This document shows, piece after piece, positions 14,662 through 32,968 of a DNA stretch of 64,000 nucleotides; the stretch's first letter is position 1, and each line of letters starts with the position of its first letter. The notes under the pieces are model-generated. The model did not search any database. It saw only the letters and a program-made list of their open reading frames with translations, and was not told the DNA's origin. This DNA is from Nitrospina sp. GTDB lineage: Bacteria; Nitrospinota; Nitrospinia; Nitrospinales; Nitrospinaceae. A program made the translations under genes and the position numbers. The stretch lies in contig JAGQJZ010000002.1 of NCBI GenBank assembly GCA_020430445.1, positions 5,425-69,424 on the forward strand. The letters are read 5' to 3'.

Positions 14662-15490
14662 TGGTGTTCGAAATTTTCCGGAATATTTTTTCTTTCTTGA
14701 ACAACAGATCGAATTCGTCCGCCACGTCCGAAAACTTGACCGTCTCCTTCGTGCCGAGACATAAAAACCCCAGCGGACTCAGGCTGTCGCGAAAAAGGTG
14801 AAACACCCGGTTCTGGAGCATCTTGTCGAAATAGATGAGAACATTGCGGCAAATGATGACGTTCATCTCCCCAAACACCCCGTCCGAAGCCAGGTTATGG
14901 GTCGAGAACACAATGTTCTTTTTCAGTTGATCGCTGAGTTTGAAGAATCCGTACTTTTCCTTACAGTAGTCGCCCAGCCTGGATTTTGCCCCGGTAGCTT
15001 GATAATTGGCTTCGAAATGCTTGAAATCTTCCATCGAATAAATCCCTTTCTGCGCAATATCCAGCGAGAGGGCGTTGAAATCGGTTGCGTAGATGACACT
15101 GCGATCAAGAAACGACTCTTCCTGCAGGATGATGGCAAGGGAATACACTTCCTCCCCGGTGGAACAGCCAGCATGCCATATCTTGACGAACGGGTAAGTC
15201 TTCATCACCGGGATCACTTTTTCCCGGAACGTCAGGAAAAACTCCGGGTCGCGAAACATTTCCGTGACCCCCACCGACATGTTCAGCAGGAAACTGTTGA
15301 ACGCTTCCTTGTTGTTCAACAGTTCGGGGATCAGGTCGGAAAAACGCTCCACATTCAATTTTTCCCGGCAAATCCCGATCCTCCTTTTGACCGAAGCCCG
15401 GCTGTAATTCCGGAAATCGACCCCGTAGCGCCGGAAAATCCCCTCCAGAAGCAGTTCTATTTCCAGTTCCTCGACATCACCCGGGCTCAT
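14642..15490 (-). CDS. cheR: CheR-type protein-glutamate O-methyltransferase
   Basis: 282 aa. CheR N-helical region, then the SAM motif IWHAGCSTGEEVYSLAI. ATGA overlap with the upstream kinase stop and 20-nt overlap with cheB. Confidence 0.9.
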   Translation of the reverse strand: MSPGDVEELEIELLLEGIFRRYGVDFRNYSRASVKRRIGICREKLNVERFSDLIPELLNNKEAFNSFLLNMSVGVTEMFRDPEFFLTFREKVIPVMKTYPFVKIWHAGCSTGEEVYSLAIILQEESFLDRSVIYATDFNALSLDIAQKGIYSMEDFKHFEANYQATGAKSRLGDYCKEKYGFFKLSDQLKKNIVFSTHNLASDGVFGEMNVIICRNVLIYFDKMLQNRVFHLFRDSLSPLGFLCLGTKETVKFSDVADEFDLLFKKEKIFRKISNTNGQAIL

Positions 15491-18400
15491 TTCTCCTCCA
15501 GCAACAGAACCCGCATCAGGGTCAGCAACATGTCCACTTCAACCGGTTTCGGCAGATAATCGTTGGCGCCTTTCTCGAGGCATTTGGCGCGGTCCTCCGG
15601 CATGGCCTTGGCCGTCAGGGCGATGATCGGCAGTTCCTGGAACCGGCCCTGTTCCCGTATTTTCTCGATCGCTTCAAACCCGTCCATCACCGGCATCATG
15701 ATGTCCATCAGAACCAGGTCGATATCCGGTTGCTCCTCCAGTTTTTCCAGGGCCATCTGTCCGTTGTCGGCAATCACAACCTTCAATCCGTTTTTCTTTA
15801 GAATCTTGGAAAGAGCGAAGGTATTGCGCAGGTCGTCGTCGACGATCAGAATGTTCCGGTCCCGCAACGGGTTCTGCTCGTTGGTCTGGCGGTTGCGAAT
15901 TTCCTTTTGCTCGCCCGTCATCTTGGTCTCAACGCTGTGCAGAAACAGCGTGACCTCATCCAGCAACCGCTCCGGGGAGTTGGCTCCCTTCAGGACAATG
16001 CTCCGCGAATACTTCTGCAACTCCTGGTTTTCTCCCTGGCTGAGTTCCTTGCCGGTGTAAATGATGATGGGAGGCAGCACCAGGCCTTCCACCTTTTCCA
16101 GTTCCTGCAACAATTCAAAGCCGGTTATGTCCGGCAGGCGAAGGTCGAGAATGACGCAGTCGAAGCGCGAGTTTTTCAACGCCTGCATGGCCTGTTCACC
16201 GGTCGACACGGACCGCGTTTCCACGCATTCCGAATCGATCAACCGCTCGATGGCCCGCTGGTTCCCCGGATCGTCTTCGATGATGAGGACCTGCTTGACC
16301 TTGGCGTTAACGAGAGCCTCGATTTCAGACAGGGTTTCCTTCAAGGCTTCCTCGGTCGTCGGTTTCAACAAGAACCCCATCGCCCCCTTCTCAAGCAGGT
16401 CCACTTTTTCATCCCTTCCGGAGATCACATGGACCGGGATGTGGCGGGTCGACGGGTTGTATTTCAACTGTTCCAGCACATTGGCCCCGTCCAGGTCGGG
16501 AAGGCCCAGGTCCAGCAAAATCGCATCGGGTTTATAGGCCAGGGCCAATTGCAGCCCCCCTTTTCCCGTCCCGGCGGCCAGGGCCTTGAAACGGCGCTTG
16601 CGCGTGATCTTCGTCAAAACCCCGGCGAAGGTCTTGTCGTCCTCGATGACCAGAATCGTCCGGTCGCCGGGTTTGATTTCATTCCGGTCGTCGGGAATGA
16701 ATTCTTCAAGGAAATTGTTGTCCAGCTTGCCTTCAAAGGATTCCGCCATATCTCCCACGGCAGCGGTCTGCGCCTCCACATCCGGCCCGGATACGGCGGT
16801 GACTGCCTGCGGCTCTTCGGAGGTTTCCTGGTAGACCGAAGGGATGCAAAGCGCAAAATGGCTTCCCTTGCCCTTTTCACTTTCGAAATTCAAATCCCCC
16901 CCGATCAACACCGCCAGTTGCCTAGAAATGGTCAGGCCCAGTCCCGTGCCGCCGTATTTTCTGCTGGTGGACCCGTCCTCCTGCTTGAACGCTTCGAAAA
17001 TTCCACTCTGGTTTTCCCGGGAAATGCCCACACCGGTGTCTTCCACGGAAAAGACGATGTTTCCCGGGGCTCTGAGATCGGGTTTTTGAATGATCGACAG
17101 CGAAGCCGGATCGGACACGCGCAGCGTCACCGAACCCTTCTCGGTGAACTTGAATGCATTCGACAGAAGGTTTTTCAGGATCTGCTTGACCCGCTGGCAA
17201 TCCGTTTTGAGCGACCGGGGATGGCCGCCGTTGAGGTCGATGTTGAACTGGACTCCCTTTTCACGCGCCACCGGTTCAAACAGACCCCGGATCTCTCTCA
17301 GCAGGTCCTCGACATTCTCCTCATAAACACTGACCTGCATCTTCCCGGCCTCGATCTTGGAAAGGTCGAGGATATCGTTGATCAATTCCAGCAGGTCCCG
17401 GCCGCCCTGGTGGATCACCTTCAGCGACTCCACCTGATCCCGGTTGAGGTTTTCATTGTCGTTGTCCAGAAGGTCCTTCGACAGGATGAGCAGGCTGTTG
17501 AGCGGGGTCCTCAATTCATGCGACATGTTGGCCAGAAATTCGGACTTGTACTTGCTGGCGGTTTCCAGATCCCGGGCCTTGTCCTCAAGCATCCGGTTGA
17601 ACACTTCAATCTGCTTGCCTTTTTCCTGAACCTCACGGTTTTTCTCTTCCAGAAAAGAGGTTTTCTCTTCCAGTTCCTCGTTTTGCGCCTGCAATTCCTC
17701 GCTCTGGTTTTTCAATTCTTCTTCATTTTGTTTCAGAATCTCGGCCTTCTCCTCCAGTTCCTCGTTCGTCACCCGCAACTCTTCCGACTGGACCTGGATC
17801 TGCTGATTCAGCTCCTGCGCTTCCTTCAACAGGGTTTCCGTCTTGATACGCCCCTCAATGCTTTCGACCACCACGCCCAGAGTGGTCGAAATTTCTTCCA
17901 TCAGGTTCCGGCACTGTGCGGAAAACGGTTCGAATGATCCGATTTCGATCACCCCTTTGACCTGGTTTTCAAATATCATCGGAGTCACCAGGATATTCCG
18001 CGGGCTGGCCTCGCCCAGTCCAGACCGGACCTGCACATAGTCTTCCGGCACACTGGTGATCTCGATCGATTTCTGTTCCAGCGCGCATTGGCCCACCAGC
18101 CCTTCCCCGACATTGTAGGTGTCGGACAAATGCTTCCTCCGGGTATGGGCGTAGGATCCCAGCAAAGACAAAGACTGGTTGCCGTTGTTTGACGCCCCGT
18201 AAAAAAGGCCCAACTGGCCGCCCAGTTTCGGCGTCACATCCTGGATCAGGGTGCGGGCAAACGCTTCCAGGCTGTTCAACCCCTGCAGTTTTCCCGTGAT
18301 TGCGGACAGGTTGGATTTGACCCAGTTGGATTCCGAGATTTTGCGGGTTTCTTCCTTCAGGCCCTCTGTCAGCGATTTGAGATTGGACTGCATTTTGCGC

Positions 18401-19536
18401 ATGGCGTCGGCCAGTTGCTCGATCTCCTTCATCCCTTTCAATTCGACCCGGAAATCAAAATCGCCTTCCGAAACGGCGTTGGCCGTTTCAATGGTTTTGG
18501 AGATGGCCTGCTGAATCGAACGGGTGATGGCGATGGCGACGACAAACCCCAGAATCATGCCAAACGCGAGCAACCCCCATTCCAGCCTGACCAGACTTTT
18601 GACCTGTTGAATAACCCCCAGAAAACTGGACTCGGTCGCTTTTTCATTCTTTTCGGAAAGCTTTCGGGCAAGCTGTGTCAGGCTGTCGGACAACGGCGCG
18701 GCCCTGGTTTTCAGCCAGTGATTGGCCAGGTTCCAGACTTCCCCCCGGCGGATTTGAAACATCTTTTCGACCAGAGGAAAAAACTCCGCCCGCGTCTTTT
18801 CGATTTCCGCAAACGCCTCCTGTTGCTCCGGAGTCATGAGGCGCGTTTTCGTTTTCAGGGTTTCATAAGCCGATGAATTCTTGGCCCAGAAAAGGTCGAA
18901 GTTGTTGCGGAATGTTTCCTCTCCGTTCATCAGGTACGCCCGCAAACTGGCCAGGCTCATGCCCAGTCCCCCGCGGAAATTAGCCAGCTGGACCAGCAAC
19001 TCTTTCCGCTCCGCCGTGGCTTTCAGGCTCGTTTCAATGTCGATCATCTGAGAAATCCTGTCATTCAGTTTTCCCGTACGGGGGATCGCTTCCTTGAACA
19101 GGATTTTCTTGGCGGGCTCGTTCTCCAGAGTGTGCGCCATGTTTTCGATCTCATCCTGGACCTTTCTCAATTCAACCAACTGGCTCCGAATGTTGTCCAG
19201 GGCGGCCCCCATCGACGGGTCCAGCCAGTTGCGGGACAAGGCCCCCAGGTTTTTCATGCTGGATGCAATATCAACATTCCAGATTTTTTCCCGGAGGGGT
19301 TTCAGATTTTCCTCGCCCAGCAACAGGTAGCCCCGGAGAATGGCCAGGGACGCGTTCACGCCGTTCAACAACCGGCCCGATTCCACCACCGAAGGAAAAC
19401 GGACTTCCACGTTTTTCTTGTTGGTTTCCTGGATCGAATTGACCTCGAAGATGGCCATCAGAACCGTCAACAGCAAGGTCAAAACCAGGAGGGCATACCC
19501 CAGGCCGATGCGTTTTGGAATGGAATTGAGCAACAT
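15487..19536 (-). CDS. large hybrid histidine kinase (duplicated helical sensor, HAMP, GAF, EEL-heptad coiled coil, HisKA, HATPase, three REC domains)
   Basis: TM1 (IGLGYALLVLTLLLTVLMAIF), periplasmic helical region, TM2, HAMP, GAF (GEGLVGQCALEQK), coiled coil, H-box SHELRTPLNSLL (His codon 17518-17520), DTGVGI/GTGLGL, then three receiver domains. ATG at 19534-19536; the track start at 19620 is a TTG with no usable RBS spacing. Confidence 0.9.
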   Translation of the reverse strand: MLLNSIPKRIGLGYALLVLTLLLTVLMAIFEVNSIQETNKKNVEVRFPSVVESGRLLNGVNASLAILRGYLLLGEENLKPLREKIWNVDIASSMKNLGALSRNWLDPSMGAALDNIRSQLVELRKVQDEIENMAHTLENEPAKKILFKEAIPRTGKLNDRISQMIDIETSLKATAERKELLVQLANFRGGLGMSLASLRAYLMNGEETFRNNFDLFWAKNSSAYETLKTKTRLMTPEQQEAFAEIEKTRAEFFPLVEKMFQIRRGEVWNLANHWLKTRAAPLSDSLTQLARKLSEKNEKATESSFLGVIQQVKSLVRLEWGLLAFGMILGFVVAIAITRSIQQAISKTIETANAVSEGDFDFRVELKGMKEIEQLADAMRKMQSNLKSLTEGLKEETRKISESNWVKSNLSAITGKLQGLNSLEAFARTLIQDVTPKLGGQLGLFYGASNNGNQSLSLLGSYAHTRRKHLSDTYNVGEGLVGQCALEQKSIEITSVPEDYVQVRSGLGEASPRNILVTPMIFENQVKGVIEIGSFEPFSAQCRNLMEEISTTLGVVVESIEGRIKTETLLKEAQELNQQIQVQSEELRVTNEELEEKAEILKQNEEELKNQSEELQAQNEELEEKTSFLEEKNREVQEKGKQIEVFNRMLEDKARDLETASKYKSEFLANMSHELRTPLNSLLILSKDLLDNDNENLNRDQVESLKVIHQGGRDLLELINDILDLSKIEAGKMQVSVYEENVEDLLREIRGLFEPVAREKGVQFNIDLNGGHPRSLKTDCQRVKQILKNLLSNAFKFTEKGSVTLRVSDPASLSIIQKPDLRAPGNIVFSVEDTGVGISRENQSGIFEAFKQEDGSTSRKYGGTGLGLTISRQLAVLIGGDLNFESEKGKGSHFALCIPSVYQETSEEPQAVTAVSGPDVEAQTAAVGDMAESFEGKLDNNFLEEFIPDDRNEIKPGDRTILVIEDDKTFAGVLTKITRKRRFKALAAGTGKGGLQLALAYKPDAILLDLGLPDLDGANVLEQLKYNPSTRHIPVHVISGRDEKVDLLEKGAMGFLLKPTTEEALKETLSEIEALVNAKVKQVLIIEDDPGNQRAIERLIDSECVETRSVSTGEQAMQALKNSRFDCVILDLRLPDITGFELLQELEKVEGLVLPPIIIYTGKELSQGENQELQKYSRSIVLKGANSPERLLDEVTLFLHSVETKMTGEQKEIRNRQTNEQNPLRDRNILIVDDDLRNTFALSKILKKNGLKVVIADNGQMALEKLEEQPDIDLVLMDIMMPVMDGFEAIEKIREQGRFQELPIIALTAKAMPEDRAKCLEKGANDYLPKPVEVDMLLTLMRVLLLEEK

Positions 19537-19846
19537 GGTCCCGCCCCTTTTACTTTTATTGAAAAGCCGAATATATGGCCAAAAAAATTCCTCCAAGCTC
19601 TTGAAGTTAAGGGAAGCCAACGCCTTAAAAATGTCAATCTAATTTTAAAAACAACCGGCGATTGCATCACCGCATGGCAGGAAAACCCGGTTCAACGGAA
19701 AGCCACACACCGTATGCCCCCTATTTACAAACAAAAAGCCGGAACGGCTGTCTCAGATGGCGGGATAAAAAGTGCAGGGACACATGAATGCCGACCCTAC
19801 CAGCAAGCATGTATTGAAACCATTCTCCAGTGGCCGCGCACGGCAC

Positions 19847-19876
19847 AAAAAAAGCCGTCCCGAAAACGGGACGGCT
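19847..19876 (-). terminator. rho-independent terminator after the CHASE2 cyclase gene
   Basis: Minus strand reads AGCCGTCCCG-uuuu-CGGGACGGCU followed by UUUUUUU. 10-bp stem, 64 nt after the cyclase stop. Confidence 0.7.
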
Positions 19877-19939
19877 TTGATATGGATTGCCGGTCACCAC
19901 TCGCCGGAAACCGGGCGGACGCCCGGCCGGCGCATGCCG

Positions 19940-22210
19940 CTACTTGGTGGACATCATGAACACGCCGTCCCAGTCGTCGGGAATGAGGCTGCCCTGGTCG
20001 CTGGCGCGGCGCTTTCTCTTTTCGATATTCTGGAAATCCTGGCACCGCTTGATAAACGTCTTCGACGGACCGTCTTCCTGTTTGATCTCGATGCACCGTT
20101 CAAACAGGGCGATCGCCTCCTCCCATTTTTTTTGCCGGTACAGTTCAAGCCCCTCGGCGAATTTCAAATGCGCCTCCCTCAATACCGGGGAGAGTTCCCC
20201 CGTTTCACAGATCACCTCATAGACCGCCACCGGCTGGTCCTTCCCCACCACCCGGATACGGTCCAGTTCCCGGCATTCCAGGGAGTCCTGAACAAACTTG
20301 TAGGTGAACTCGCTGATCAGGATATCGGAGCCGTACACCTTGTTCGCGCCTTCCAGCCGGGAAGCCAGGTTGACGCTGTCTCCCATGACGGTGTAGTCCA
20401 TCCGGTTGGCGCTTCCCATGTTGCCCACCACCATGGGTCCCGTGTTCAACCCGACCCGCATGTACAATTCCGAACGGCCCTCGCGCCTCCAGACCTCGCG
20501 CATTTCAGCCAGGCGCTGCTGCATGGCCAGCGCCGACCGGCAGGCGCGGATGGCGTGGTCTTCATATTGAATAGGCGCGCCGAAAAACGCGACGATGGAA
20601 TCGCCCTGAAATTTGTCGACCGTTCCCTCATTGTCCAGGATGATGTTGGTCATTTCGGTCAAGTATTCGTTGAGCAGTTCCACCAGTTGTTTCGGCGTCA
20701 GGTTTTCCGCGATCGAGGAAAACCCCACCACGTCGGCGAAAAACGCCGTGAGGATCCGGCGGTCGCCCCCCAGTTTGAGAAGCTTGGGATTTTCCACCAC
20801 CTGCCGGACCACCTCCGGCGCCAGGTACTGGCTGAAAGCCCCCTGGATGAAGCGCTTCTTGCGCTCTTCAAAAGCGAAGCGGTAAATCGTCACTCCCGTG
20901 TAAACGAAAAGCTGGGAAAACACCGGGTACACCGTGTGCACCACCAGGCCCTTTTCATTCAACAGGTAATAATCGAAAGCCAGAAAAGCCACGATGCCCA
21001 TCAACGCCAGCGCGCCGGAAGCCACGGCGCGAAAATACAGGGAGATGATTCCGAGAAAAATTCCGGACAGCAGGATAATGGAAATGTCCAGCACTTCGAT
21101 CCAGGCCGGGCGCTTGATGAAGTCCTGCTGCAGGACGTTTTCGATGACCGTGGCATGCGCTTCCACACCGGGATAGAGCGGACCGAACGGAGTGGTTTTC
21201 GTGTCGTAGGTGGCCGCCGCCGTCGCCCCCAGCAAAACGATTTTGCCTTTCAGGTCCTCTTCCGTCACGCGCCCGGCGAGAACGTCGGTGGCGGGAATGT
21301 GGGGGAAGGTGTAGGCCGGGCCATAGTAATTGATGAAATATTCCCCCCTCGTGGTGGCGGGAATTTCCACCTTGTTGAACATGATCTTGCTCACGCCGTA
21401 GGAGGCCAGTGTCACCATCAGGGGAGATTTCACGGCCTCCTGCAGCACCTGCAGGCTGAGAGGGGGAAACAGGTGATCGTGCCCGTAGCCCATGACCAGG
21501 GGAATGCGCCGCACCACGCCGTCGCGTTCCGGCACGTAGTACACGAACCCGGCATTGTTCGCCGCTTCCATGAACTCCGGCAGGCTGAGCCCCACCCGGT
21601 CGATCTCATGCAGACGGATCGGATCGCCCGGCTTGTCGTTGCGGTGCACCAGGCCATACTGCGAAAAGTCCAGCAGTTCGAGGTGCTGCGGGTCGACAGG
21701 CTGCGCGTTGGCCACGCCGCGGCTGCCGGCCGGAAAAACCGTGTACCCTAAAACAACCCGGTCGGATTGAGCCAGGGAGCGGGCAAACAACCGGTCGGAG
21801 TCGCCCACCTGACGCAGCCAGCCCGCCGTTTTGCGGCTGTCCCAGCCGAGGATTTCCTGCTCGTCCAAAGCCGAGTCGAGGGTCTCGAAGGGAACGTAGT
21901 TGTCCCGCTCCGGAAAAAAAATATCGATACCAATGACCGCCGCGCCGGCTTCTGAAAGCCGGTCGATCAGGTGCGCCAGCCGTGAACGCGGCCAGGGCCA
22001 GCGCCCTTCCTGCTGGAGGCTTTTTTCGTCGATAGCGACGATGACGACGTTTTCGCTCACCGGACGGACGCCCCGCGCGGTCAACTTGACGTCGTACGCC
22101 TTGAGATCGAGGAGTTGGAAAAAGGGGAGGTCGAACGAGTAGAGGGAAATCGAAACCAGGGTGAGCAGAAACGCGATAGTGAAATTGTTGACCAGGAAAC
22201 GTTTCACCAC
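19940..22210 (-). CDS. CHASE2 sensor / class III adenylate cyclase with C-terminal TPR-like tail
   Basis: 756 aa. CHASE2 hallmark VVIVAIDEKSLQQEGRWPWPRSRLAHLI...GIDIFF, then TM segments. Cyclase core FFADVVGFS, DKFQGDSIVAFFG and GDSVNLASRLEG carries Lys/Thr substrate residues (adenylate type). GTG start. Confidence 0.9.
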   Translation of the reverse strand: MVKRFLVNNFTIAFLLTLVSISLYSFDLPFFQLLDLKAYDVKLTARGVRPVSENVVIVAIDEKSLQQEGRWPWPRSRLAHLIDRLSEAGAAVIGIDIFFPERDNYVPFETLDSALDEQEILGWDSRKTAGWLRQVGDSDRLFARSLAQSDRVVLGYTVFPAGSRGVANAQPVDPQHLELLDFSQYGLVHRNDKPGDPIRLHEIDRVGLSLPEFMEAANNAGFVYYVPERDGVVRRIPLVMGYGHDHLFPPLSLQVLQEAVKSPLMVTLASYGVSKIMFNKVEIPATTRGEYFINYYGPAYTFPHIPATDVLAGRVTEEDLKGKIVLLGATAAATYDTKTTPFGPLYPGVEAHATVIENVLQQDFIKRPAWIEVLDISIILLSGIFLGIISLYFRAVASGALALMGIVAFLAFDYYLLNEKGLVVHTVYPVFSQLFVYTGVTIYRFAFEERKKRFIQGAFSQYLAPEVVRQVVENPKLLKLGGDRRILTAFFADVVGFSSIAENLTPKQLVELLNEYLTEMTNIILDNEGTVDKFQGDSIVAFFGAPIQYEDHAIRACRSALAMQQRLAEMREVWRREGRSELYMRVGLNTGPMVVGNMGSANRMDYTVMGDSVNLASRLEGANKVYGSDILISEFTYKFVQDSLECRELDRIRVVGKDQPVAVYEVICETGELSPVLREAHLKFAEGLELYRQKKWEEAIALFERCIEIKQEDGPSKTFIKRCQDFQNIEKRKRRASDQGSLIPDDWDGVFMMSTK

Positions 22211-22230
22211 TCACACCCAGCAGGGAGCTT

Positions 22231-22262
22231 AAAAAAACGCCGACGGCTTGCGGGAGGCGGCG
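22231..22262 (-). terminator. weak hairpin plus U7 run between TpsA and the cyclase gene (possible attenuator)
   Basis: Minus strand reads CGCCG-N15-CGGCG followed by UUUUUUU, ending about 20 nt before the cyclase GTG. The stem is only 5 bp. Confidence 0.3.
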
Positions 22263-22395
22263 GCAGTGTCCGCCCACCCGGGTTTTCCCATCAGCCATCC
22301 CGGGCCGGAGATTCCGTTCCCTGCCGACAATGGCAAAGCGGATGAGGGGCTCAGCCGCCCGCCATGGAGGTCAACCACCCGAACTCAACCCCGTG

Positions 22396-25359
22396 TTAGC
22401 AGTTGGTTTTGGAATCCGCGATAAACAGGCTGATGAACGTGCTCTGCGTGCCCTCTTTCACAAGCTCCGTGAACTGGCTTCCGCCCTCCGGTGCCGTCAC
22501 ATTCGGAACATTCAGCGCAACCACACAGGTGGACGACCCGTCACAAGTCGGCGGATTTTGCGCCGGGGGTTCCGCCGGAGCGTTCAAGTCCTGCAGGGTC
22601 CCGTTGAGAATGATTTCCGGCGCCAGGATAATACTCGTTCCACCGTAAGCGAGGGTGGACCCGGCCGTCAATTCAAACCTGCCGATCCCGTCAAGCGTGA
22701 AGGGAAACGCCTGCCCGCCAATGAGGAACTGCTGTTCGACGCTTGCCAGGAAATTCCCCAGAGTGACGATGTTTCCGTCCACCAGGACCAGGTCGCCCGC
22801 ATTCAGAGTCAGGTTGTTGAAATTGGAATTCCCGACGAAAGTGACCTGGCCGGTGTAATTTCCCGGCGCGGTCGCCTGAATGCTGACTTCGGAAATGTGG
22901 GACGCCTCCATGCTGTCGACGGTGACCTCGGAGGTGTCGAGCACTGAATCACCGATCAGCAGTTCGTCGGCGGTGATGTTGGCGATTTCGTCATTGTCCA
23001 GCGTCAGTCCGCCGGTGGCTTCACCGAGACCGATCGTGCCATAGGATGTCGTGGTGTTGACATGCACCGCGCTGGCCACCACGCTGCCGTCCAAGTGGAC
23101 ATCATTCGCGCTCAGGAACACATCATTCAAGGCGGTGATGCTTTTGCCCCCGGCCAGTTGGAACGCGCCCAACGGCGAAAAAGAGTAAAAACTGTCCGCG
23201 GCGTTGATGTTTGCGTTGACCCAGACATTGCCTGCCGGCGAGAGGTTGATATTGTTCCCGCTGATCTCGGCATCGACCACCACGTCGCCGAGAGGCAGCG
23301 CGTTCACCGTCGAGCTGAATTCCGAGGAGTCGCCGGTAAAATGCACATCGCCGGCGGAACGGAAATCCGTGGACGCCTGGTTGGCCGTGTGAGCCGCCGT
23401 GAGACCGGACACGAACACGTCGTCATTCGATCCGTTGCCGACCACGAAGGACAGGCCTCCAGGCGCGTGGATGTTTTGCAACTCGGTGCCGCTCAGGGTC
23501 AGGCCGCAAGCGCCGCCGCAGATATTGGAAACATCTCCCGTACCCACGGCTCCGTCCACGCCAATGGTGCCGTTGTCCCGCGGCGTGACATAGACCCTGT
23601 AACTGGAATACAGCTCGCCCTGGATGTTCACGTCATCGGCGGCGATCCCCAGGTCCCCGTCTCCCACGTCCACCGTCACGCCGGAAGCGACGTTCACCTT
23701 GCCCCGGCCATTGGTGTCGGAATCCGCCGTCATGCTCAGATTGAGCCGGTCACCATCCCCCTGCGATCCATCGAAAATATTGGCGTTGATGTTAATGTCG
23801 TTGTGAGCGAACAGGTTCAACGTGGCTTCTTCCGATCCATCGAAATTCAGATCGGAGCTCACGGTAATATTGCCCGGCTGGGCAAATGCGTCCAGGGGTG
23901 GAGTGGCGGAAGGGCTCGCGTCGAGATCTTCTTCACCCGTCGTGATCGTCACCGTGCCGCCTTCCGCCAGGGCGGCGGTGATCAGGTCCGCTCCCAGCGT
24001 GGCGCTCGTACCGTCTGACGTGAAATCGGGTCCACCGACAATATTGCTGGAACCACCGCCGGCGACGATTTCAATGTTGTAAGGATCGATCAGCCAGGTT
24101 CCGCTTTGACCGTTTGACGCGGTGACGTCCGGCGTCCGGCCGATATCAAAATAATGTTTGCCCGAGGTTTCGATGAACCCGCCGTTGCCTCCCAGCGGGC
24201 CTCCGCGCGCGCTCAGGAGCCCATAGACGCGCGCCGCCCTCTGGGCGAAGGCGATCACGCGTCCGCCGTCGCCGGATTCCGTCGCGTCCGCCCGAACGGT
24301 GGTGTTCGGGCCGATGTAAGTGGCCTGCGCGTTCTGGACTGCCGGGTTTCCTCCCTGCCGGTCGCCGCCGATCAGCACATCGCCGCCACCGGCGGCGCCC
24401 GATGCGTTGACAACCGCCTCTTCGATGACGCCCACGTTTTCACCGAGAATATGAACCGTGCCCCCGGTCTCTCCGGAGTCGTTGCCGCTCACGTCGATGA
24501 TCCCCGAGTTCAGGACCGTACCGGTGGGGCCGCCGTGCAGAATCACCACGCCGTTTTTCTTTTCAACCGAACGCGCCTGGATGACGCCCTCGTTATTGAC
24601 CACGTTCTGGACCACCTGGCTCGCATCCCACGCAGTCAACATGACCTGCCCCCCGTCCGCATTGATGAGTCCCGCATTGCGGGTGCGGTGGGTCAAAACA
24701 TTGCCGTTGGTGTCCCGGACTTCCCCGGAAACCGGCTGGGTGATGGCGAAACGGATGAGGTTGTCGCCGGTGAAATCCAGCGTGCCGGCTTCACCGGAAG
24801 CGAGCGCCACCGAACCGAGGTTGGCCACGATCACGCCGCGGTTTTCGACCGCCGGAGCGAACAGACCGACATACCGCCCGGTGATGCGGCCTTCGTTGAT
24901 GACGGAGGCCAGGGACCGCGTCGGGTCCTGGAAAAAACGGTAGTTGCCATCCAGAAAATCCTGATCGGAAATGGACAGCGTCGTCGCCACCAGGGCGTTG
25001 GCGTTCACTTGCGCCCCCGGGCCGAACAGGACGCCCGCCGGGTTGCTCAGGAACACCTGGCCGTTGGCCGAAAGCCGTCCCATGATCAGGCTGGGGTCCA
25101 CCCCGATGACACGGTTGAGCGCCGTGGCCTGGGCGTTGGGCTGCTGAAACGTGACCGACTCCGCCGCGCCGATGGAAAACGACTGCCAGTTGGTGATCAG
25201 TTGCTGTGTATTCTGCTGAATGGTCATGCTGCCGCCGGACGACTGGATCGACCCGCTGCCGGCGGCAATCTGACCGCCATTGGGCAAAGCCCAGACCCAC
25301 AGGGGCGACACGGTGAACCACAACGTCCACAGCACCATCAACACACTTTTAGTTTTCAT
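22396..25359 (-). CDS. two-partner-secretion exoprotein (TpsA) with filamentous-haemagglutinin N-terminal TPS domain
   Basis: 987 aa. Signal peptide, then the TPS domain (ITNWQSFSIGAAESVTF, ALNRVIG, ANGQVFLSNPAGVLFG). The rest is Gly/Asn/Asp/Val/Thr-rich (beta-helix type composition). Confidence 0.9.
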   Translation of the reverse strand: MKTKSVLMVLWTLWFTVSPLWVWALPNGGQIAAGSGSIQSSGGSMTIQQNTQQLITNWQSFSIGAAESVTFQQPNAQATALNRVIGVDPSLIMGRLSANGQVFLSNPAGVLFGPGAQVNANALVATTLSISDQDFLDGNYRFFQDPTRSLASVINEGRITGRYVGLFAPAVENRGVIVANLGSVALASGEAGTLDFTGDNLIRFAITQPVSGEVRDTNGNVLTHRTRNAGLINADGGQVMLTAWDASQVVQNVVNNEGVIQARSVEKKNGVVILHGGPTGTVLNSGIIDVSGNDSGETGGTVHILGENVGVIEEAVVNASGAAGGGDVLIGGDRQGGNPAVQNAQATYIGPNTTVRADATESGDGGRVIAFAQRAARVYGLLSARGGPLGGNGGFIETSGKHYFDIGRTPDVTASNGQSGTWLIDPYNIEIVAGGGSSNIVGGPDFTSDGTSATLGADLITAALAEGGTVTITTGEEDLDASPSATPPLDAFAQPGNITVSSDLNFDGSEEATLNLFAHNDININANIFDGSQGDGDRLNLSMTADSDTNGRGKVNVASGVTVDVGDGDLGIAADDVNIQGELYSSYRVYVTPRDNGTIGVDGAVGTGDVSNICGGACGLTLSGTELQNIHAPGGLSFVVGNGSNDDVFVSGLTAAHTANQASTDFRSAGDVHFTGDSSEFSSTVNALPLGDVVVDAEISGNNINLSPAGNVWVNANINAADSFYSFSPLGAFQLAGGKSITALNDVFLSANDVHLDGSVVASAVHVNTTTSYGTIGLGEATGGLTLDNDEIANITADELLIGDSVLDTSEVTVDSMEASHISEVSIQATAPGNYTGQVTFVGNSNFNNLTLNAGDLVLVDGNIVTLGNFLASVEQQFLIGGQAFPFTLDGIGRFELTAGSTLAYGGTSIILAPEIILNGTLQDLNAPAEPPAQNPPTCDGSSTCVVALNVPNVTAPEGGSQFTELVKEGTQSTFISLFIADSKTNC

Positions 25360-25409
25360 GGCCTCTTCTCTGTATTCCCCTCAATAGTTCCCCGTCACTG
25401 CTCCGGACG

Positions 25410-26279
25410 CTAGTTAACCTGGCAGGATTCCGCGTCCGAGTCATCAAAAAATTCGTAGGATTCGGTAAAATCCTCCGCTTCGTAATCTCCCTGTTGCAAT
25501 TCGACCACCACGTTGCCGGTTGTGGCTTCTCCGGACAACGGCGACTGCGGCAGACCGTTGACGATCCGCTCGATCAGCGCGCGTTCCCCCGGCGCCAGCG
25601 GCGCGGGCGTGGTGGGCGGCTTGCCCTCCTCGATAACACTTTTCATCATGGCGCCGACATTGACATTCCCCGGCACCTCCGGATTGCTGTTCGACGCGTC
25701 CACCGATCCGGCCTGGTTGGCCACCAGGGTGCGGAAATGCGTGGCGCTGAAAAATCCCTTGGTGCCGCGGGCGGAAAGCACCGCCGTCGGCGTTTTCATT
25801 TCAAACCGGGACTCCGGATGGGTCGACTGCTTGTTGACGATGTACATGGACAACCCATGCGCGATGTTGACCACGCTCTGCCGCAGCTTGCTGTCCGGTT
25901 CGAACAGGAACTGTTCCATGGTGACCTCGGTTTTCGGTCCCAGGGCGAACAGGCTTTTGTCCTTGAACAAAATCTTCAGCCGGCTTTTCTTGGAAGTCCT
26001 GAAACGGTCGTTCACGCGCACCGTCTGCTTGGGCTGCGCCTTCTGCCAGGGGCCGAACGAGACGGTTTTCACCTGTCCCTCTTTCCCCGCCGCAGGGCCG
26101 GGCTCGACGGCCTGGTATTCCACCGTTCCACGAATGGAAATGATGCGGCCCAGTTCCGCGTCTTCCGCCACCGCCACCGTGCTGGACAACAGCAAACCCA
26201 GGCAGGCGAGAACAAATGCCGCCCCGGTTTTTTGATGCTCCTGATTCCTGTCTTGATTCTGATCCTTCATCGCATTCAC
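25410..26279 (-). CDS. FecR-domain periplasmic protein
   Basis: Signal peptide, then a FecR-like core (WQKAQPKQTVRVNDRFRTSKKSRLKILFKDKSLFALGPKTEVTM). The start may be the GTG at 26279 or the ATG at 26270. Confidence 0.8.
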   Translation of the reverse strand: MNAMKDQNQDRNQEHQKTGAAFVLACLGLLLSSTVAVAEDAELGRIISIRGTVEYQAVEPGPAAGKEGQVKTVSFGPWQKAQPKQTVRVNDRFRTSKKSRLKILFKDKSLFALGPKTEVTMEQFLFEPDSKLRQSVVNIAHGLSMYIVNKQSTHPESRFEMKTPTAVLSARGTKGFFSATHFRTLVANQAGSVDASNSNPEVPGNVNVGAMMKSVIEEGKPPTTPAPLAPGERALIERIVNGLPQSPLSGEATTGNVVVELQQGDYEAEDFTESYEFFDDSDAESCQVN

Positions 26280-26284
26280 CCTGG

Positions 26285-28030
26285 CTAGAAAAACAGCCGG
26301 CCGGCCACGTGCACCATGCCGAGGCTGCCATCGGAGGGTTTTCTATCGCCCAAAACCGGAATGGCGTAGGTCAGGGAAAAGTCCGCGCCCGGCAGGTGCC
26401 CTTTGCCTTTTGGAACGGACAACCGGACGCCCCCTCCCACGCTGGTGAGCGAAACGTTGCGCTCAGCCGGCTGGGGCTCTTCTATAAAGATACGGCCATG
26501 ATCGATAAAACCAAAGAGAGAAAATAAATCCGGGAACGTGTACCGCGGATTCGTGGTGACCGGGAAATCGATCGGGAGCGGCAGGACGTATTCGAGCGTC
26601 GTCTGGTAACCGTGGTCTCCCGAGGCGTCCGCCAGCGGATAGCCGCGCACGGTGCCGATCCCGCCCAGCACAAACTGGTCCGGCGACAAAACGCGCTTGT
26701 CGGTGACCTGACCGTTGAATTTCATGATGAAATAACTGCCGCCGAAATAAGCCGACTGATAGCGTGTGAGGCTGAACGTGGCCACCACTGCGTCGCCCTG
26801 CCCCTGCAGGCGGGAGTTCAGCGGGTCTCCCTGGTCGGTCTCGGTATAACCGAACTGGAGGCGGCCCTGCAGAAAGGTCTGCCCCATGAGAGGATCCCGG
26901 ATATTGCCTCCGGCGAACAGGTGCGCGTTGAACAGGACATCGTCGGTGCTGGTCTGGTTTTGCAGAAAGTTTTTGAAGAAGCGGAAGTCCAGTCCGGCCC
27001 CGGCATAGAAATGGGCCATGCGGCTGCGAAAGAGCGTGTGCAGCATATCGGCGGTGGCCATGTGCGAATTGCCGCCGGCGTTCAACGCCGTCAGGGCTCC
27101 GCCCAACTGGTGGTCGGAATAAATATAGGACAGGCCCAGGGTGGTGCCGCTTTCATTCAGCGGGACGGTGTAATTGGGATTGACAAAGTTCTGCCCCAGG
27201 CCCGAGCGCAACGCGCGCAGGCGGAAGGTGTCGCCGAAGCGCAGCAGGTTCCCGGTGATGCCGGTGGCGCCCACCCGGTTCCGGCCGGTGAACTCCGAAC
27301 CAAAATTGTCCGCATCGATTGAGAATTCCCAGGGACGCGTTTTTTTGACTTCCAGCACGAGGTCGGACGTCCCGTCTTTTTTACCCGGCCGTAGCACCGA
27401 TGAAATTTCATACCCGATCAGGTCGTTCAGTTCCAGGATCGGACCTTCGAGGTCCCGCTCCATCAGGTTGGGCCGGCCCACAAGCGGCGCGAAACGCCGT
27501 TTGATTTTGTCGGCGTGTTCCTCAGGCAGATTGCCCGTGACCTGGACCTCGCCCAGCCGCCCCTCCACCACCTGGAACAGCACCACGCCATCGCGGATGG
27601 TCTGCGCCGGCACCAGCGTGCGCGCCAGAATATACCCCTTGCGGAAATAAAGGGCGGTGATCTCCTGCGCCATCAGGTCGAGAAGCCCGAGGGTCAGTTC
27701 CTCGCCGCCGCCGAGCGCGACGATGTCCGCCAGTTCCTCATACTTGACGAGAGTGTTGCCCTGCACCAGGACCGACTTGACAAAAAACGCAGGCCCCGCG
27801 CCGGGGTCCGTGAGCGTGCGGCTGTCCTGGATTTCAATTTGAGGGAGAACGGCCGGGGGACGGACACGCTCCGGCCGGGCCTTCTCCAGCGACTTCTGGA
27901 TCACGCCGGAATCTCCCGCCGGGGGCAGAGGGACCTGGGCTCCAGCATTGGAATGGAAAGCGAGTGCCGTCATAAGCGTCAGAAAAAAGCGTCTTCCTCT
28001 GTTTGTTGCAATTGAAAGAAAGGCAAACAT
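26285..28030 (-). CDS. ShlB/FhaC/HecB-family TpsB outer-membrane transporter (POTRA + beta-barrel)
   Basis: 581 aa. Signal peptide, POTRA-like FFVKSVLVQGNTLV...GEVQVTGN, long beta-barrel region, terminal Phe. Confidence 0.9.
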   Translation of the reverse strand: MFAFLSIATNRGRRFFLTLMTALAFHSNAGAQVPLPPAGDSGVIQKSLEKARPERVRPPAVLPQIEIQDSRTLTDPGAGPAFFVKSVLVQGNTLVKYEELADIVALGGGEELTLGLLDLMAQEITALYFRKGYILARTLVPAQTIRDGVVLFQVVEGRLGEVQVTGNLPEEHADKIKRRFAPLVGRPNLMERDLEGPILELNDLIGYEISSVLRPGKKDGTSDLVLEVKKTRPWEFSIDADNFGSEFTGRNRVGATGITGNLLRFGDTFRLRALRSGLGQNFVNPNYTVPLNESGTTLGLSYIYSDHQLGGALTALNAGGNSHMATADMLHTLFRSRMAHFYAGAGLDFRFFKNFLQNQTSTDDVLFNAHLFAGGNIRDPLMGQTFLQGRLQFGYTETDQGDPLNSRLQGQGDAVVATFSLTRYQSAYFGGSYFIMKFNGQVTDKRVLSPDQFVLGGIGTVRGYPLADASGDHGYQTTLEYVLPLPIDFPVTTNPRYTFPDLFSLFGFIDHGRIFIEEPQPAERNVSLTSVGGGVRLSVPKGKGHLPGADFSLTYAIPVLGDRKPSDGSLGMVHVAGRLFF

Positions 28031-28694
28031 TCAAACCCTGAGATTGCTGTTCCCATTTCCCAAACAGCGCGGCCTCCCTGCTTAAAGTCAGAAAGTCGGG
28101 GAAAAAAATCCAATCCGGAAATCTGGTTTGGTGAACCCGCGAAAAAAATCGAACTTCCTCCCCTGCTTTTCGGCCCATTCGAATCACTTGATTATAACCT
28201 AAAAATTCCGGCTGGCACCCCAAAACCTCCCGTAAATTAAGGGGAAAAGGGACAAGCGGCCGGCGGACACAGAAACCGGAACCTGCCGATTTCCCGAACC
28301 GAATACGCACCGGTTTCGAGAGCGCCGCAAAACCGGCGCAAAACATCACCTAACTTATTGTTTTAAAACGAAAAAATTAGAATTGGGGCGTGTCGTTGAA
28401 CCTCAATCCCTCCGGACTTTTTAAGGAGGCTTTATTCAATGATTTTCGCGGCAGGTTGTCGCGGCCGGGCCGGTCCCGCGAAACTACGGCGTATTCACCG
28501 GCGCAAAATTCCTGTTTTTCCCCCTCAAACCGGCGGCAGGGGGCCCGGGCATGAAAACAACACACAACATCGCACCTTAAAAACACCGGGCAACATATTT
28601 TCCGATTACCAAAATATTTTATTTTTGTTTTCGCCCGAAAATTTGTGCGGATGTTTTTCCGCAGAATCATAACGGTTTTTCACGTTGCCCTCCG

Positions 28695-30728: not shown

Positions 30729-31556
30729 ATGAACAGAAAGCCTTTTTGGAAATTCAGCAACAGGCCCTCCACCAGGCCGCCGCTGAACGAACCCCCTCTT
30801 CCCAATCCCGGTGAGTCCACGGAAAAATACATCCAGACATTTCTGGACGACAGGATTTTCTCCTATCTTCTTTTTTGTCTGCTGACTGTTTTTCTCGCTT
30901 TGTGGGAATGGTGGGCCTGGTATCAGAACCTGCCAAGACAACCTGAACTTTATTTTCTGATGGCGGCGGTCATCGTCCCATTTGCCCTATTCAGGATTCT
31001 CCAGAACCGGAAAAAACTGAAAGCCCTGCAACTGGGCCTGGAAGGGGAAATTGCTGTCGGGCAGTTTCTGGAAACCCTGCGTGAAAGTGGTGCCCGCGTG
31101 TTTCACGACATTCCCGGACCCGGGTTCAATCTGGACCACGTGCTGGTATCCCCAAAAGGGGTTTTTGTGATTGAAACCAAAACCTGGTCCAAGCCGGTCC
31201 GTGGTGCCACGATCATCACCTTCAACGGAGAAGGTGTTTCCAAAAACGGCGGACCTTATGATCCGGCCCCGGTGGTTCAGGTTACCGCCGCAGCCAACTG
31301 GTTGCGGGAAATGCTGCTCGAATTCACCGAACAGGATTATCCCATTCAGCCGATTGTGGTTTTTCCCGGATGGTATATTCAACCCACGGCGGAATCCAAA
31401 TCCCATCCTGTGTGGGTTTTAAATCACAAGGCCGTCCCCGGCTTTATCGTCAACAGCCGGAACCAGTTGAGCACGGAGGAAGTGCACATGATCTCGGTTT
31501 ATCTGTCCCGTTATGTGCGGACTCTTTCCCCACAAACAAAAGGCGGCGCGTTATAA
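30729..31556 (+). CDS. membrane-anchored NERD (nuclease-related) domain protein
   Basis: 275 aa. Two N-terminal TM helices, then the NERD core GLEGEIAVGQFLETL...VFHDIP...LDHVLVSPKGVFVIETK. Confidence 0.8.
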   Translation: MNRKPFWKFSNRPSTRPPLNEPPLPNPGESTEKYIQTFLDDRIFSYLLFCLLTVFLALWEWWAWYQNLPRQPELYFLMAAVIVPFALFRILQNRKKLKALQLGLEGEIAVGQFLETLRESGARVFHDIPGPGFNLDHVLVSPKGVFVIETKTWSKPVRGATIITFNGEGVSKNGGPYDPAPVVQVTAAANWLREMLLEFTEQDYPIQPIVVFPGWYIQPTAESKSHPVWVLNHKAVPGFIVNSRNQLSTEEVHMISVYLSRYVRTLSPQTKGGAL

Positions 31557-31641
31557 TTTTCTTCAGGCCCCCTACGGAGGATTTTGTTTTGTTGACCAGT
31601 CTGAAAAGGCCCGAGGAATTTCTAAAGGATCTGACGGGGAA

Positions 31642-32934
31642 CTAAAACAGATAGTCCACGCCGAGGAGGCCACCGTGGCGGTAGGTTTCCAGCTTGTTCA
31701 GCGGCGTATCCCCCGCGAATCCACCCGGAAGGTAGAAAGTCGCCGTCCCGTCATTCACCTGCATGTGCCAATAACGGTAACCCACTTTAACGGATAGGCG
31801 GGGATGAAAACGGTAGTGCACCGTGCCTTCGAGGGTGTAACCGAGACCGAGTCCAGAATCCTGAACCGAAGGGTTTTGTGCCAGGTCCGCCCGCAGATGG
31901 TGGGTGTCTTCATTATCCACAAAGGCCAGCGGCAGAAAACCGCCGTCCAGGTTCAGTTCCAGGCCGTTCAAGACCTGCAGTGTGGACGTGAGGCCGATCC
32001 GCATGCCGTGCCACCGAAGCGAGTTGGTGATAGTGGATTGTCCGGCAAAGCCGCTGGTTCCCGGGGGATCGCACAAAAGGGCGCTGGTACACTCCAGTTG
32101 TGTGACGCCTTCGGCATTGTATTGCTCCGCCCAGTAATGAAATCCCATATAGGCGCCGAGTTTCAGACGCGGTGACCGGTAAAAATGCCCGCCCACATCG
32201 AACTGGGCATAGAGCATGTCCACCATATTCACATCACTGAGCGTGCGCGAATACCGGTGCTCCCCGGATTGGCTGGTCGCGTAAAAGGCCGCCCCCGCGG
32301 CGCTGACGAAGTCATCGTCGATCAATTCACCGAAACCTCCACCGTAACCGGCCAGCCCCCGCGCGAACCACCTGCGCCAGTTCACTTTTCCCAGGAACTC
32401 TCCCGAATACCCGCGCAGGTCCCGGTAGAACAGCTCCGACGTCGGGTCCCCGTGCAGATAGTAACCCGACGTGTGGTTGAAATCCGTCTGGCCGGTCCCG
32501 ATCCACGTTCCAATCGAGTACGTCCATTCGGGCGCATCGTATTTTCGGGGCGGCGCACCGGCCGGAGAGGTTGCAGTCCCGGAATTTGCCGCAACCGCAA
32601 CCGGTAGACGAGGGCTTCCTTCCCTCCCGCCACCGGAATTTTGAACGCGCGCCTTTTCGGTGACGGGAGCGGCCGGAATGGAACTCTTCCCCCCGGAATC
32701 CTTTCGATCCGGGATGACCATTTCATAGGTCCGGGACTCGTAGGTTTTGACGCCGTCCCGGGCTTCACCCTCCTCCGCCGGAACCACCACATCGAACGAG
32801 CGGGTGACGCCGCCCGTTCCCGGTTCCCCCGCGTCGGCCGTAGCGGAAAACAGGAGCAACAGCCCGAGAAAAAAACACCCCCATCCCCGGCCGTTCCCGG
32901 CAAGGCCCCTTTGTCCGGTAGATGACTGATTCAT
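31642..32934 (-). CDS. predicted outer-membrane beta-barrel protein with Pro/Gly-rich N-terminal region
   Basis: Start chosen at MNQSSTGQRGL..., followed by the signal-like FFLGLLLLFSATADA. The C-terminal half has alternating aromatic/hydrophilic strands and ends ...GLLGVDYLF. A longer ORF start would overlap the upstream gene. Confidence 0.6.
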   Translation of the reverse strand: MNQSSTGQRGLAGNGRGWGCFFLGLLLLFSATADAGEPGTGGVTRSFDVVVPAEEGEARDGVKTYESRTYEMVIPDRKDSGGKSSIPAAPVTEKARVQNSGGGREGSPRLPVAVAANSGTATSPAGAPPRKYDAPEWTYSIGTWIGTGQTDFNHTSGYYLHGDPTSELFYRDLRGYSGEFLGKVNWRRWFARGLAGYGGGFGELIDDDFVSAAGAAFYATSQSGEHRYSRTLSDVNMVDMLYAQFDVGGHFYRSPRLKLGAYMGFHYWAEQYNAEGVTQLECTSALLCDPPGTSGFAGQSTITNSLRWHGMRIGLTSTLQVLNGLELNLDGGFLPLAFVDNEDTHHLRADLAQNPSVQDSGLGLGYTLEGTVHYRFHPRLSVKVGYRYWHMQVNDGTATFYLPGGFAGDTPLNKLETYRHGGLLGVDYLF

Positions 32935-32968
32935 AAATTGCTCGCTCGCAGGACAATGTCCCTTCGAA

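Follow-up and report, generated by a model that had tools for sequence, protein, structure and literature searches.

A 64,000-nucleotide stretch of Nitrospina sp. DNA (GenBank assembly GCA_020430445.1, contig JAGQJZ010000002.1, forward-strand positions 5,425 to 69,424; hereafter the window, whose numbering we use for coordinates) encodes on its minus strand, in this order, a two-partner secretion (TPS) transporter (TpsB), a FecR-domain protein, a TPS exoprotein (TpsA) and a CHASE2-domain adenylate cyclase. We propose that these four proteins form an envelope-spanning sensory relay, in which an event at the cell surface would be passed through TpsB/TpsA and the FecR-domain protein to the CHASE2 cyclase and end in the synthesis of cyclic AMP (cAMP); we put the probability of this reading at about 50%. 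A relay from a FecR domain to CHASE2 is already known from the NsrA–CyaK system of Sinorhizobium meliloti. What appears to be new, as judged by sequence comparison, is the use of a TpsB/TpsA pair as the outer-membrane part, together with a pair of lone C-terminal cysteines in TpsA and the FecR-domain protein.

The four open reading frames (ORFs), all on the minus strand, lie where the preliminary description of this DNA had placed them, and Pfam hidden Markov models (HMMs) confirmed the ShlB/POTRA, FecR, TPS, CHASE2 and cyclase domains assigned there. The genes are separated by 5 nt (tpsB to FecR), 50 nt (FecR to tpsA) and 185 nt (tpsA to cyclase), and the unit is probably co-transcribed as an operon.

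The product of tpsB (26285-28030; 581 amino acids (aa); Pfam ShlB 1e-24, POTRA_2 1.7e-15, POTRA 3.3e-5) is predicted to be a canonical transporter of the Omp85/TpsB family in the outer membrane, with a signal peptide, two POTRA domains, a ShlB-type barrel and the motifs VRGY in L6 (GTVRGYPL) and FIDHG. The Omp85-type barrel, the two POTRA domains and the L6 motif are the features expected of the transporter in two-partner (type Vb) secretion. Among solved structures CdiB comes closest (6wim, E = 1.4e-17; alignment over residues 39-475), and relatives at least 42% identical to the window TpsB occur across Nitrospinota. The export of TpsA is predicted to depend on this protein.

TpsA (gene at 22396-25359; 987 aa) consists of a signal peptide, a TPS domain, a β-helix of variable length and a conserved C-terminal tail, and its N-terminus (MKTKSVLMVLWTLWFTVSPLWVWA) is hydrophobic. 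The TPS secretion domain (residues 33-281, 24517..25263, minus strand; PF05860, 3.3e-34) is the most conserved stretch of the family alignment (A2), in which the extreme C-terminal tail, GTQSTFISLFIADSKTNC (22399..22452, minus strand), ending in Cys, is invariant. Solved relatives include EtpA (8cpk, 1.4e-63), HMW1 (2odl, 3e-35) and HxuA (4i84, 8e-29), and the full-length EtpA structure (8vba) aligns with residues 13-871. A Sec signal peptide, a TPS domain and a β-helical passenger are thus all present, and TpsA is predicted to be a β-helical exoprotein of the EtpA/HMW1/HxuA class, that is, of the adhesin or haemophore type. Family members range from 531 to >3000 aa, and the passenger varies greatly in sequence as well as in length. 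In three loci of Saanich Inlet type, a long tpsA is split into two ORFs that overlap or are out of frame (L036/L052, 11406-19908; L053, 11600-14997; L057, 11341-20273). The conserved Cys tail is found on the downstream half only; the split could be due to a frameshift or to misassembly of repeats, or the two genes could be real.

The FecR-domain gene (25410-26279; 289 aa; FecR PF04773, 1.8e-10), the likely true start of which is the ATG at 26270, encodes a signal peptide, a β-solenoid core and an acidic, disordered tail. In an AlphaFold2 model the core (residues 39-240) has a confidence score (pLDDT) of ~90 and the tail one of <40; the ~40 residues ahead of the core include a signal-peptide-like helix ending in AVA/AQA. 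A sequence search of the PDB with the FecR profile gave no match, and the relation to solved proteins came instead from a fold search. In Foldseek, the top match of the core was the C-terminal cell-surface signalling domain (CCSSD) of PupR (6ovk, E = 5.7e-7), and an anti-sigma protein from Parabacteroides also matched (4m0h, E = 1.3e-6). The window protein has no cytoplasmic anti-sigma domain, no membrane anchor and no second Pfam domain, and neither a gene for an extracytoplasmic function (ECF) sigma factor nor one for a TonB-dependent transducer lies near the FecR gene in the window or in the related loci examined. We therefore refer to it as a FecR-domain protein and not as a FecR anti-sigma factor; sequence and model together predict a secreted, soluble periplasmic protein. 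The LAC in its signal peptide could be read as that of a lipoprotein, which we ruled out because homologues lack this Cys.

Two features of the FecR-domain protein bear on its possible function. The triplet R-G-T (R168-G169-T170 in the window protein, M4 numbering) does not vary in the core, whether within the family or among distant FecR proteins; it is similar to the Gly-Thr self-cleavage site of FoxR, to which it is possibly equivalent. At the C-terminus, the conserved motif YEFFDDSDAESCQVN (25413..25457, minus strand; alignment A1) holds the sole Cys of the mature protein. In a library of representatives at 50% identity, the tight clade around this protein comprises 44 clusters at E ≤ 1e-30, and a clear step separates it from a larger, more distant set of FecR-domain proteins (1392 clusters at E ≤ 1e-10).

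The last gene of the unit (19940-22210; 756 aa; CHASE2 3.7e-65, Guanylate_cyc 1.8e-24, weak C-terminal TPR matches) encodes a first transmembrane helix, a periplasmic CHASE2 domain (nt 21059-22150), three further transmembrane helices, a cytoplasmic cyclase domain (nt 20231-20749) and a TPR-like C-terminal end. Its AlphaFold2 model (pLDDT 82.5) has helices at residues 9-26, 371-392, 395-420 and 427-438. The best solved relative of the cyclase domain is CyaB of Pseudomonas aeruginosa (3r5g, E = 1.6e-43), with FFADV aligned to FFSDI, DKFQGD to DKFVGD and MDYTVMGDSVNLASRLE to MDYTIIGREVNLASRLE. The preliminary description had held that the catalytic residues are retained, and the alignment bears this out residue by residue: CyaB is matched at both metal-binding aspartates (in FFADVVGF and KFQGD), at the Lys and Thr for the substrate (in DKFQGD and DYTVMG) and at the transition-state Asn and Arg (in VNLASRLE), as expected of a class IIIb adenylate cyclase. 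The protein is thus predicted to be a four-helix transmembrane CHASE2 receptor with a catalytically complete class IIIb adenylate cyclase and cAMP as its output.

CHASE2 is among the common bacterial extracytoplasmic sensor domains; to our knowledge it has neither a solved structure nor a known direct ligand. The CHASE2 part of the window protein gave no significant fold match in the PDB (best E = 0.58), and therefore no ligand class can be inferred for it. That CHASE2 has no known ligand had been stated in the preliminary description, and recent papers still describe the domain in this way (PMC10581220; PMC5192318).

Conservation of the module and its cysteines

For each of the four proteins, the closest relatives come from Nitrospinota (metagenome-assembled genomes (MAGs) of Nitrospinaceae, Nitrospina sp. 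and Candidatus Nitronauta litoralis). The order TpsB, FecR, TpsA, CHASE2 cyclase is found in a Nitrospinaceae MAG (L001), which also carries a second, paralogous four-gene copy with other flanks (L004), in a 4.2-Mb contig (L002) and in the complete genome of Ca. Nitronauta litoralis (L093). A metagenome scan with the FecR alignment gave 80 loci, which we annotated with HMMs built from the window proteins, and synteny of the module's genes is conserved in about 50 metagenome loci. We counted adjacency within the FecR clade at ≥37% identity and over those loci that have the relevant flanking sequence. TpsB lies directly upstream of FecR in 35 of 48 loci, a TPS-domain gene directly downstream in 35 of 39, and a CHASE2 cyclase is present in 12 of the 15 loci with large flanks. 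The position of the FecR gene between tpsB and tpsA, pointed out earlier for the window, therefore holds for most relatives too: the two secretion genes share a strand and a unit, yet the FecR gene separates them.

The flanks differ among loci (Suf operon, PAP2, DEAD helicase, FUR, DabA), and four loci have the same gene set in permuted order (L029, L033, L045 and L048). Because synteny is kept in many loci with unrelated flanks, chance adjacency can be excluded; the shared synteny, differing flanks and permuted orders indicate a self-contained module under selection. The preliminary description had proposed comparing gene neighbourhoods across phyla, and the outcome was divided: the four-gene unit recurs within Nitrospinota, whereas outside the phylum we found FecR and CHASE2 genes together without an adjacent TPS pair. 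For example, tblastn searches of plasmids with FecR, CHASE2 and TpsB returned FecR+CHASE2 pairs from Alpha- and Betaproteobacteria, none with an adjacent TPS pair. Searches for homologues of TpsB and CHASE2 returned only relatives at ≥42% identity, with Nitrospinota names and one contig labelled Gammaproteobacteria. A scan of genome contigs with the single FecR protein returned one close Nitrospinaceae locus only. On the contig labelled Gammaproteobacteria, which is 6.4 kb long and was binned as 'Gammaproteobacteria bacterium' (L092; GCA_018703495.1, contig JABJPD010000126), a 742-aa CHASE2 cyclase follows a TpsA whose tail does not differ from the one in L036; this is probably a binning error and not an occurrence in another phylum.

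Some loci depart from the four-gene set. Comparison of L002 with the orthologous L003 reveals a clean absence of tpsA in the latter, and both L003 and L051 keep TpsB, a FecR-domain protein with its Cys intact and the cyclase in the absence of TpsA. In L091 (454-6177), a TpsB 43% identical to that of the window is encoded next to a sigma-54 enhancer-binding protein, a CHASE2-SpoIIE (PP2C) protein and an anti-sigma-type kinase, which suggests a variant of the same envelope sensor with a partner-switching output. Because this TpsB stands beside a CHASE2-SpoIIE protein, the barrel seems to track the CHASE2 sensor and not the cAMP output. Together, L091 and the loci that lack TpsA imply that the core pairing is that of TpsB/FecR with CHASE2, not of the TpsA filament as such.

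The distribution of cysteines suggests a tie between TpsA and the FecR-domain protein. Exactly one Cys is present in the mature chain of 43 of 45 distinct FecR family members, always within 7 residues of the C-terminus and after an acidic-aromatic motif. Among more distant FecR-domain proteins, a single C-terminal Cys occurs in only 11 of 106 (two of the 11 being fragments of the family itself), and the feature thus appears to be largely confined to the TPS-linked clade. In TpsA, the last or second-last residue is Cys in 21 of 24 complete family ORFs, usually after G[TS]xSTF[IL]xxF; each of the other three is the upstream half of a split ORF. This terminal Cys is the only one in nine TpsAs, whereas the window TpsA has CDGSSTC ~45 residues before its end as well as the terminal Cys. 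No Cys is present in mature TpsB from 25 of 27 family members or in the periplasmic CHASE2 domain from 11 of 12, which leaves the C-terminal cysteines of TpsA and the FecR-domain protein as the only ones conserved in the periplasmic parts of the module. For the nine TpsAs with one Cys, an intramolecular loop of the HMW1 kind is impossible, and such a loop is therefore not a feature of the family. An intermolecular TpsA–FecR disulfide tether in the periplasm is the simplest reading that these sequences suggest.

Proposed relay and competing explanations

We hypothesize that TpsB threads TpsA to the cell surface while the C-terminal tail of TpsA stays in the periplasm, as for TpsAs of the HMW1/HxuA type, where its terminal Cys would be disulfide-bonded to the single C-terminal Cys of the FecR-domain protein. 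The latter would serve as a periplasmic stopper and as an adaptor that touches the CHASE2 domain, the POTRA domains of TpsB or both. An event at surface-exposed TpsA or TpsB (binding, pulling or cleavage) would alter the adaptor (its position, release or proteolysis), and the altered adaptor would switch the CHASE2 cyclase and change cAMP. Given the likeness of R-G-T to the FoxR site and the protection by a partner in FoxA–FoxR, regulated cleavage of the adaptor is a plausible switching step. The preliminary description had assumed that the TpsA filament, or its engagement at the surface, is sensed through FecR and CHASE2 and converted to cAMP. The conserved unit, the complete catalytic set and the NsrA precedent favour this proposal, but TpsA itself is dispensable in L003 and L051.

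In a stricter form of the relay, which we regard as tentative, with the odds against it, a type Vb system would have been turned into a receptor: TpsA would remain with the cell, span the outer membrane inside TpsB and be disulfide-linked through its C-terminal Cys to that of the FecR-domain protein, and a surface force, ligand or cleavage would be passed mechanically to CHASE2. If this were true, a FecR-domain protein would be the first defined direct ligand of CHASE2, and a TpsA/TpsB pair would for the first time serve as the sensory input of a second-messenger enzyme.

The physical coupling of the proteins and the direction of the signal are both inferred, and several observations weigh against a relay. 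The four-gene unit was not found outside Nitrospinota in the searches made. The absence of TpsA from L003 and L051 means that the module does not require it in cis, and the FecR Cys may pair with something else; the 6.3-kb contig of L091 carries neither a FecR nor a TpsA gene. The number of Cys residues is even in 4 of 21 TpsAs. Neither a cAMP receptor gene nor a CRP-type site was seen in the window. Additionally, the FecR-domain protein SMc02177 of S. meliloti, whose gene smc02177 neighbours the cyclase gene cyaD1, is a target of Clr/cAMP and is dispensable for the perception of the signal (PMC5498481), and by analogy a FecR neighbour can be output rather than input.

This last case also speaks for reading the TPS genes as output: the FecR–CHASE2 cyclase would sense an unrelated periplasmic or extracellular cue, and the TPS adhesin would be merely co-expressed or under cAMP control, with no physical relay. 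The P. aeruginosa FecR-type system VreAIR does govern the expression of an adjacent TPS system (PMC2729926), and FecR+CHASE2 pairs are widespread without TPS genes. We nevertheless consider this explanation unlikely. It does not account for the retention of the FecR gene between tpsB and tpsA, with gaps of 5-50 nt, in a clade that is otherwise rearranged, or for single C-terminal cysteines in TpsA and the FecR-domain protein that are specific to the TPS-linked clade. The TpsB of L091, which accompanies a CHASE2 sensor that is not a cyclase, is inexplicable by cAMP control of a TPS adhesin, and the promoter region of the unit has no CRP-like site.

A tether whose purpose is secretion itself would also fit the paired cysteines and the acidic, disordered tail of the FecR-domain protein. 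The latter would act as a periplasmic TPS chaperone, or as a stopper that holds the TpsA C-terminus, and the cyclase would report load or failure of the pathway, through free versus engaged FecR, and not an external signal. TpsAs of the HMW1/HxuA type need a periplasmic anchor (PMC5422565), and an outer-membrane partner is known to protect a FecR-type protein from proteolysis (PMC11637429), a case in which the G-T of FoxR may parallel R-G-T. We think such a monitor quite improbable, as the loci without TpsA (L003 and L051) retain an intact FecR-domain protein and TpsB, and as the one studied system, NsrA, mediates perception of an external protein signal (PMC7529298). The variability of the TpsA passenger, from 531 to >3000 aa, also fits a part that faces the environment better than it fits housekeeping cargo. 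Contact-dependent inhibition, or another toxin-type TPS system placed beside an unrelated signalling pair, is suggested by CdiB (6wim) as the best solved relative of TpsB, and we rejected it on the anatomy of TpsA and the locus: TpsA has no VENN motif and ends in a conserved 18-residue tail in place of a variable toxin tip, no immunity-sized ORF follows tpsA and none at all lies in the 185-nt spacer, the TPS domain is nearest to those of adhesin- and haemophore-type TpsAs, and synteny with FecR and CHASE2 is conserved. It would be very surprising if this reading were correct.

Transcription signals and genomic neighbourhood

The strong terminator noted earlier after the cyclase gene was the best-scoring site in our terminator scan. 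This intrinsic terminator (19841..19878, minus strand; AAAGCCGTCCCG-TTTT-CGGGACGGCTTT followed by T7) closes the unit, with a 12-bp stem that includes 8 G-C pairs, a 4-nt loop and the T7 run (19878-19851). At the other end, a promoter-like site lies ~160 nt ahead of the tpsB start codon (28191..28218, minus strand; GTGCCA, 16 nt, TATAAT; scan score 10/12), and its -10 box, (G)GTATAAT, is kept at the same position 5' of tpsB in L001 and in Ca. Nitronauta litoralis (L093). The intergenic region 5' of tpsB (28031-28694) is unusually long (664 nt) and A+T-rich. A 97-aa ORF within it (28377-28670) has no Pfam match and is probably not a gene, and an Rfam search of the 660-nt region upstream of tpsB found no riboswitch or small RNA.

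The spacer between tpsA and the cyclase gene (22211..22395, minus strand) is 185 nt long in the window and only 67-102 nt in relatives. A weak hairpin with a U7 run at 22231-22262 had been proposed to set the ratio of TpsA to cyclase. The T7 run is there (22231-22237), but the hairpin finds no support: the terminator scan made no call in the spacer, Rfam gave no match, and a 196-nt stretch across the spacer folds no better than shuffled sequences (z = -0.8). On these grounds we ruled out an attenuator, and the idea that the element sets the ratio is not upheld.

We also looked for control of the unit by its own predicted product. No TGTGA-N6-TCACA-like site occurs 5' of tpsB, and matches across the window are below chance, although the CRP site of Nitrospinota may differ from this pattern; a phmmer search with Escherichia coli CRP found no CRP-like ORF in the window. 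cAMP–CRP autoregulation is thus without support from either the site scan or the search for CRP.

Directly downstream of the terminator, on the same strand, lies a signalling cluster (6392-19620) that encodes two response-regulator/HD-domain proteins, a dCache-PAS hybrid kinase, a PAS kinase with two receiver domains, CheB, CheR and a HAMP-GAF hybrid kinase with three receiver domains; no gene for CheA or for a methyl-accepting chemotaxis protein is in view around it. A CbiX-like gene is also among the neighbours of the unit in the window. On the upstream side (30729-38249) are genes for a NERD-domain protein, an outer-membrane β-barrel protein, a ferredoxin-reductase-type protein, a multihaem cytochrome c and an FTR1 iron permease.

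Comparison with known systems

The FecA–FecR–FecI, PupB–PupR and FoxA–FoxR systems resemble the module in the fold of the FecR domain, which matches the PupR CCSSD, and in their logic, by which a periplasmic FecR domain couples an outer-membrane protein to a signalling step at the inner membrane. Unlike the proteins of those systems, the module's FecR-domain protein has a cleavable signal peptide, lacks an anti-sigma domain and an anchor and has no ECF sigma gene nearby; its partner would be TpsB and not a TonB-dependent transducer, and the predicted output is cAMP and not the release of a sigma factor. In cell-surface signalling, FoxR cleaves itself at G-T, and the outer-membrane partner shields the FecR-type anti-sigma factor from proteolysis (PMC11637429).

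HMW1, HxuA and EtpA have the TPS domains closest to that of the module's TpsA, and tpsB precedes tpsA in etpBAC as it does here. The module differs in that a FecR gene stands between tpsB and tpsA, a cyclase gene ends the operon and a gene for an HMW1C/EtpC glycosyltransferase is lacking. In HMW1 and HxuA, the Cys-containing C-terminal tail is expected to be periplasmic and disulfide-locked and to retain the exoprotein (PMC5422565). That anchor is an intramolecular disulfide loop, whereas many TpsAs of the module have the terminal Cys only, which implies an intermolecular partner.

FecR genes beside CHASE2 genes have been reported from other bacteria. In Campylobacterota, a cluster of FecR and a CHASE2 cyclase includes a phosphodiesterase and a TPR protein (PMC9239204), and the 'BiofilmReg' operon of Burkholderia encodes a response regulator, a LysM-FecR protein, a CHASE2 histidine kinase and a DUF4136 protein (PMC5192318). 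The authors of both studies read the adjacency of FecR (COG4254) and CHASE2 as one pathway (PMC5192318; PMC9239204). Unlike the module, these clusters lack a TPS pair beside them. LysM or outer-membrane barrel and TPR parts occur in their FecR partners, histidine kinases are among the outputs, and a phosphodiesterase gene is among the accessory genes. We also found FecR+CHASE2 pairs in Paraburkholderia pBN1 (FecR-OmpA-CHASE2) and in an Ensifer plasmid. On the plasmid of Ensifer sp. PDNC004 (L090; NZ_CP070354, 744140-764221), a FecR-TPR gene pair is accompanied by a divergent CHASE2 cyclase gene and then a gene for an MBL-fold hydrolase, with an NHLP/Nif11 bacteriocin export system and a cyclic-nucleotide-binding protein encoded nearby. 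A TpsB/TpsA (MBG-domain) pair lies 11-15 kb away, and we treat its linkage as unproven.

More distant FecR genes have other neighbours. In L069 (8784-12125) and L073 (8619-12306), the FecR gene directly follows a TPR + porin-like barrel gene (DUF2860/BBP2_2) and precedes one for a PD40 or fn3 protein; no CHASE2 was detected in these two loci, which echo the general pairing of FecR domains with outer-membrane barrels. A subfamily of small FecR proteins (L066, L067, L070-L072, L076 and L079) has a conserved YCPSDLY...C tail with two Cys residues. In L067, L071 and L079 its genes are flanked by genes for Old-Yellow-Enzyme-type oxidoreductases, and in L067 also by a thioredoxin-reductase-type gene.

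In the literature searched, no paper connects a two-partner secretion pair with CHASE2 or describes the module in Nitrospinota. The preliminary description had taken the co-occurrence of these domains to be noticed and not explained, which holds for the link between TPS and CHASE2, absent from the papers found, but not for the FecR–CHASE2 half, which already has the genetics of NsrA–CyaK. If the relay works as proposed, the uses of two-partner secretion would reach beyond adhesins and toxins to the input of signals, and surface sensing by way of cAMP would be indicated for the main marine nitrite oxidisers. The two lone cysteines offer a sharp biochemical handle, and the question of what CHASE2 binds would become testable in a heterologous host.

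The closest parallel is NsrA of S. meliloti, which CyaK and CyaD1/D2 require in order to perceive an extracellular protein signal, the ribosomal protein uL2 (PMC7529298; PMC13001267). In the loci that we inspected, nsrA is directly upstream of the CHASE2 cyclase gene cyaK, and a FecR-domain gene adjoins cyaD1. NsrA (1200 aa) has an N-terminal FecR domain (2.3e-15), a TPR region and a C-terminal barrel, and the window FecR protein aligns with its N-terminus (BLASTP E = 3e-6); between TpsB and NsrA no similarity was detectable (best E = 0.58). In strain B399, nsrA is ~1.1 kb shorter (a 761-aa ORF versus 1200 aa; L007, 5399-7684, versus L009, 3058-6660), with most of the barrel region lost. The two systems share a periplasmic FecR domain, homologous between them, an outer-membrane β-barrel and a CHASE2 class III cyclase encoded beside the FecR-domain protein, in S. 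meliloti immediately downstream of nsrA. They differ in that FecR, TPR and barrel are fused in NsrA, whereas the FecR part of the module is a separate, soluble protein of 289 aa, the barrel is an Omp85/TpsB transporter and a secreted TpsA is added. The C-terminal Cys features of the module are absent from NsrA, and TPR, which in NsrA lies between FecR and barrel, is weakly detected at the cytoplasmic end of the module's cyclase. The rhizobial work established that CHASE2 cyclases depend on a FecR-domain protein of the outer membrane that acts upstream of them, but not how the signal passes between the two. By analogy, the Nitrospinota module looks like a split version of the NsrA–CyaK relay, with TpsB as its barrel and a variable surface antenna added, in which barrel, FecR adaptor, antenna and receptor are divided among small, separately expressible proteins.

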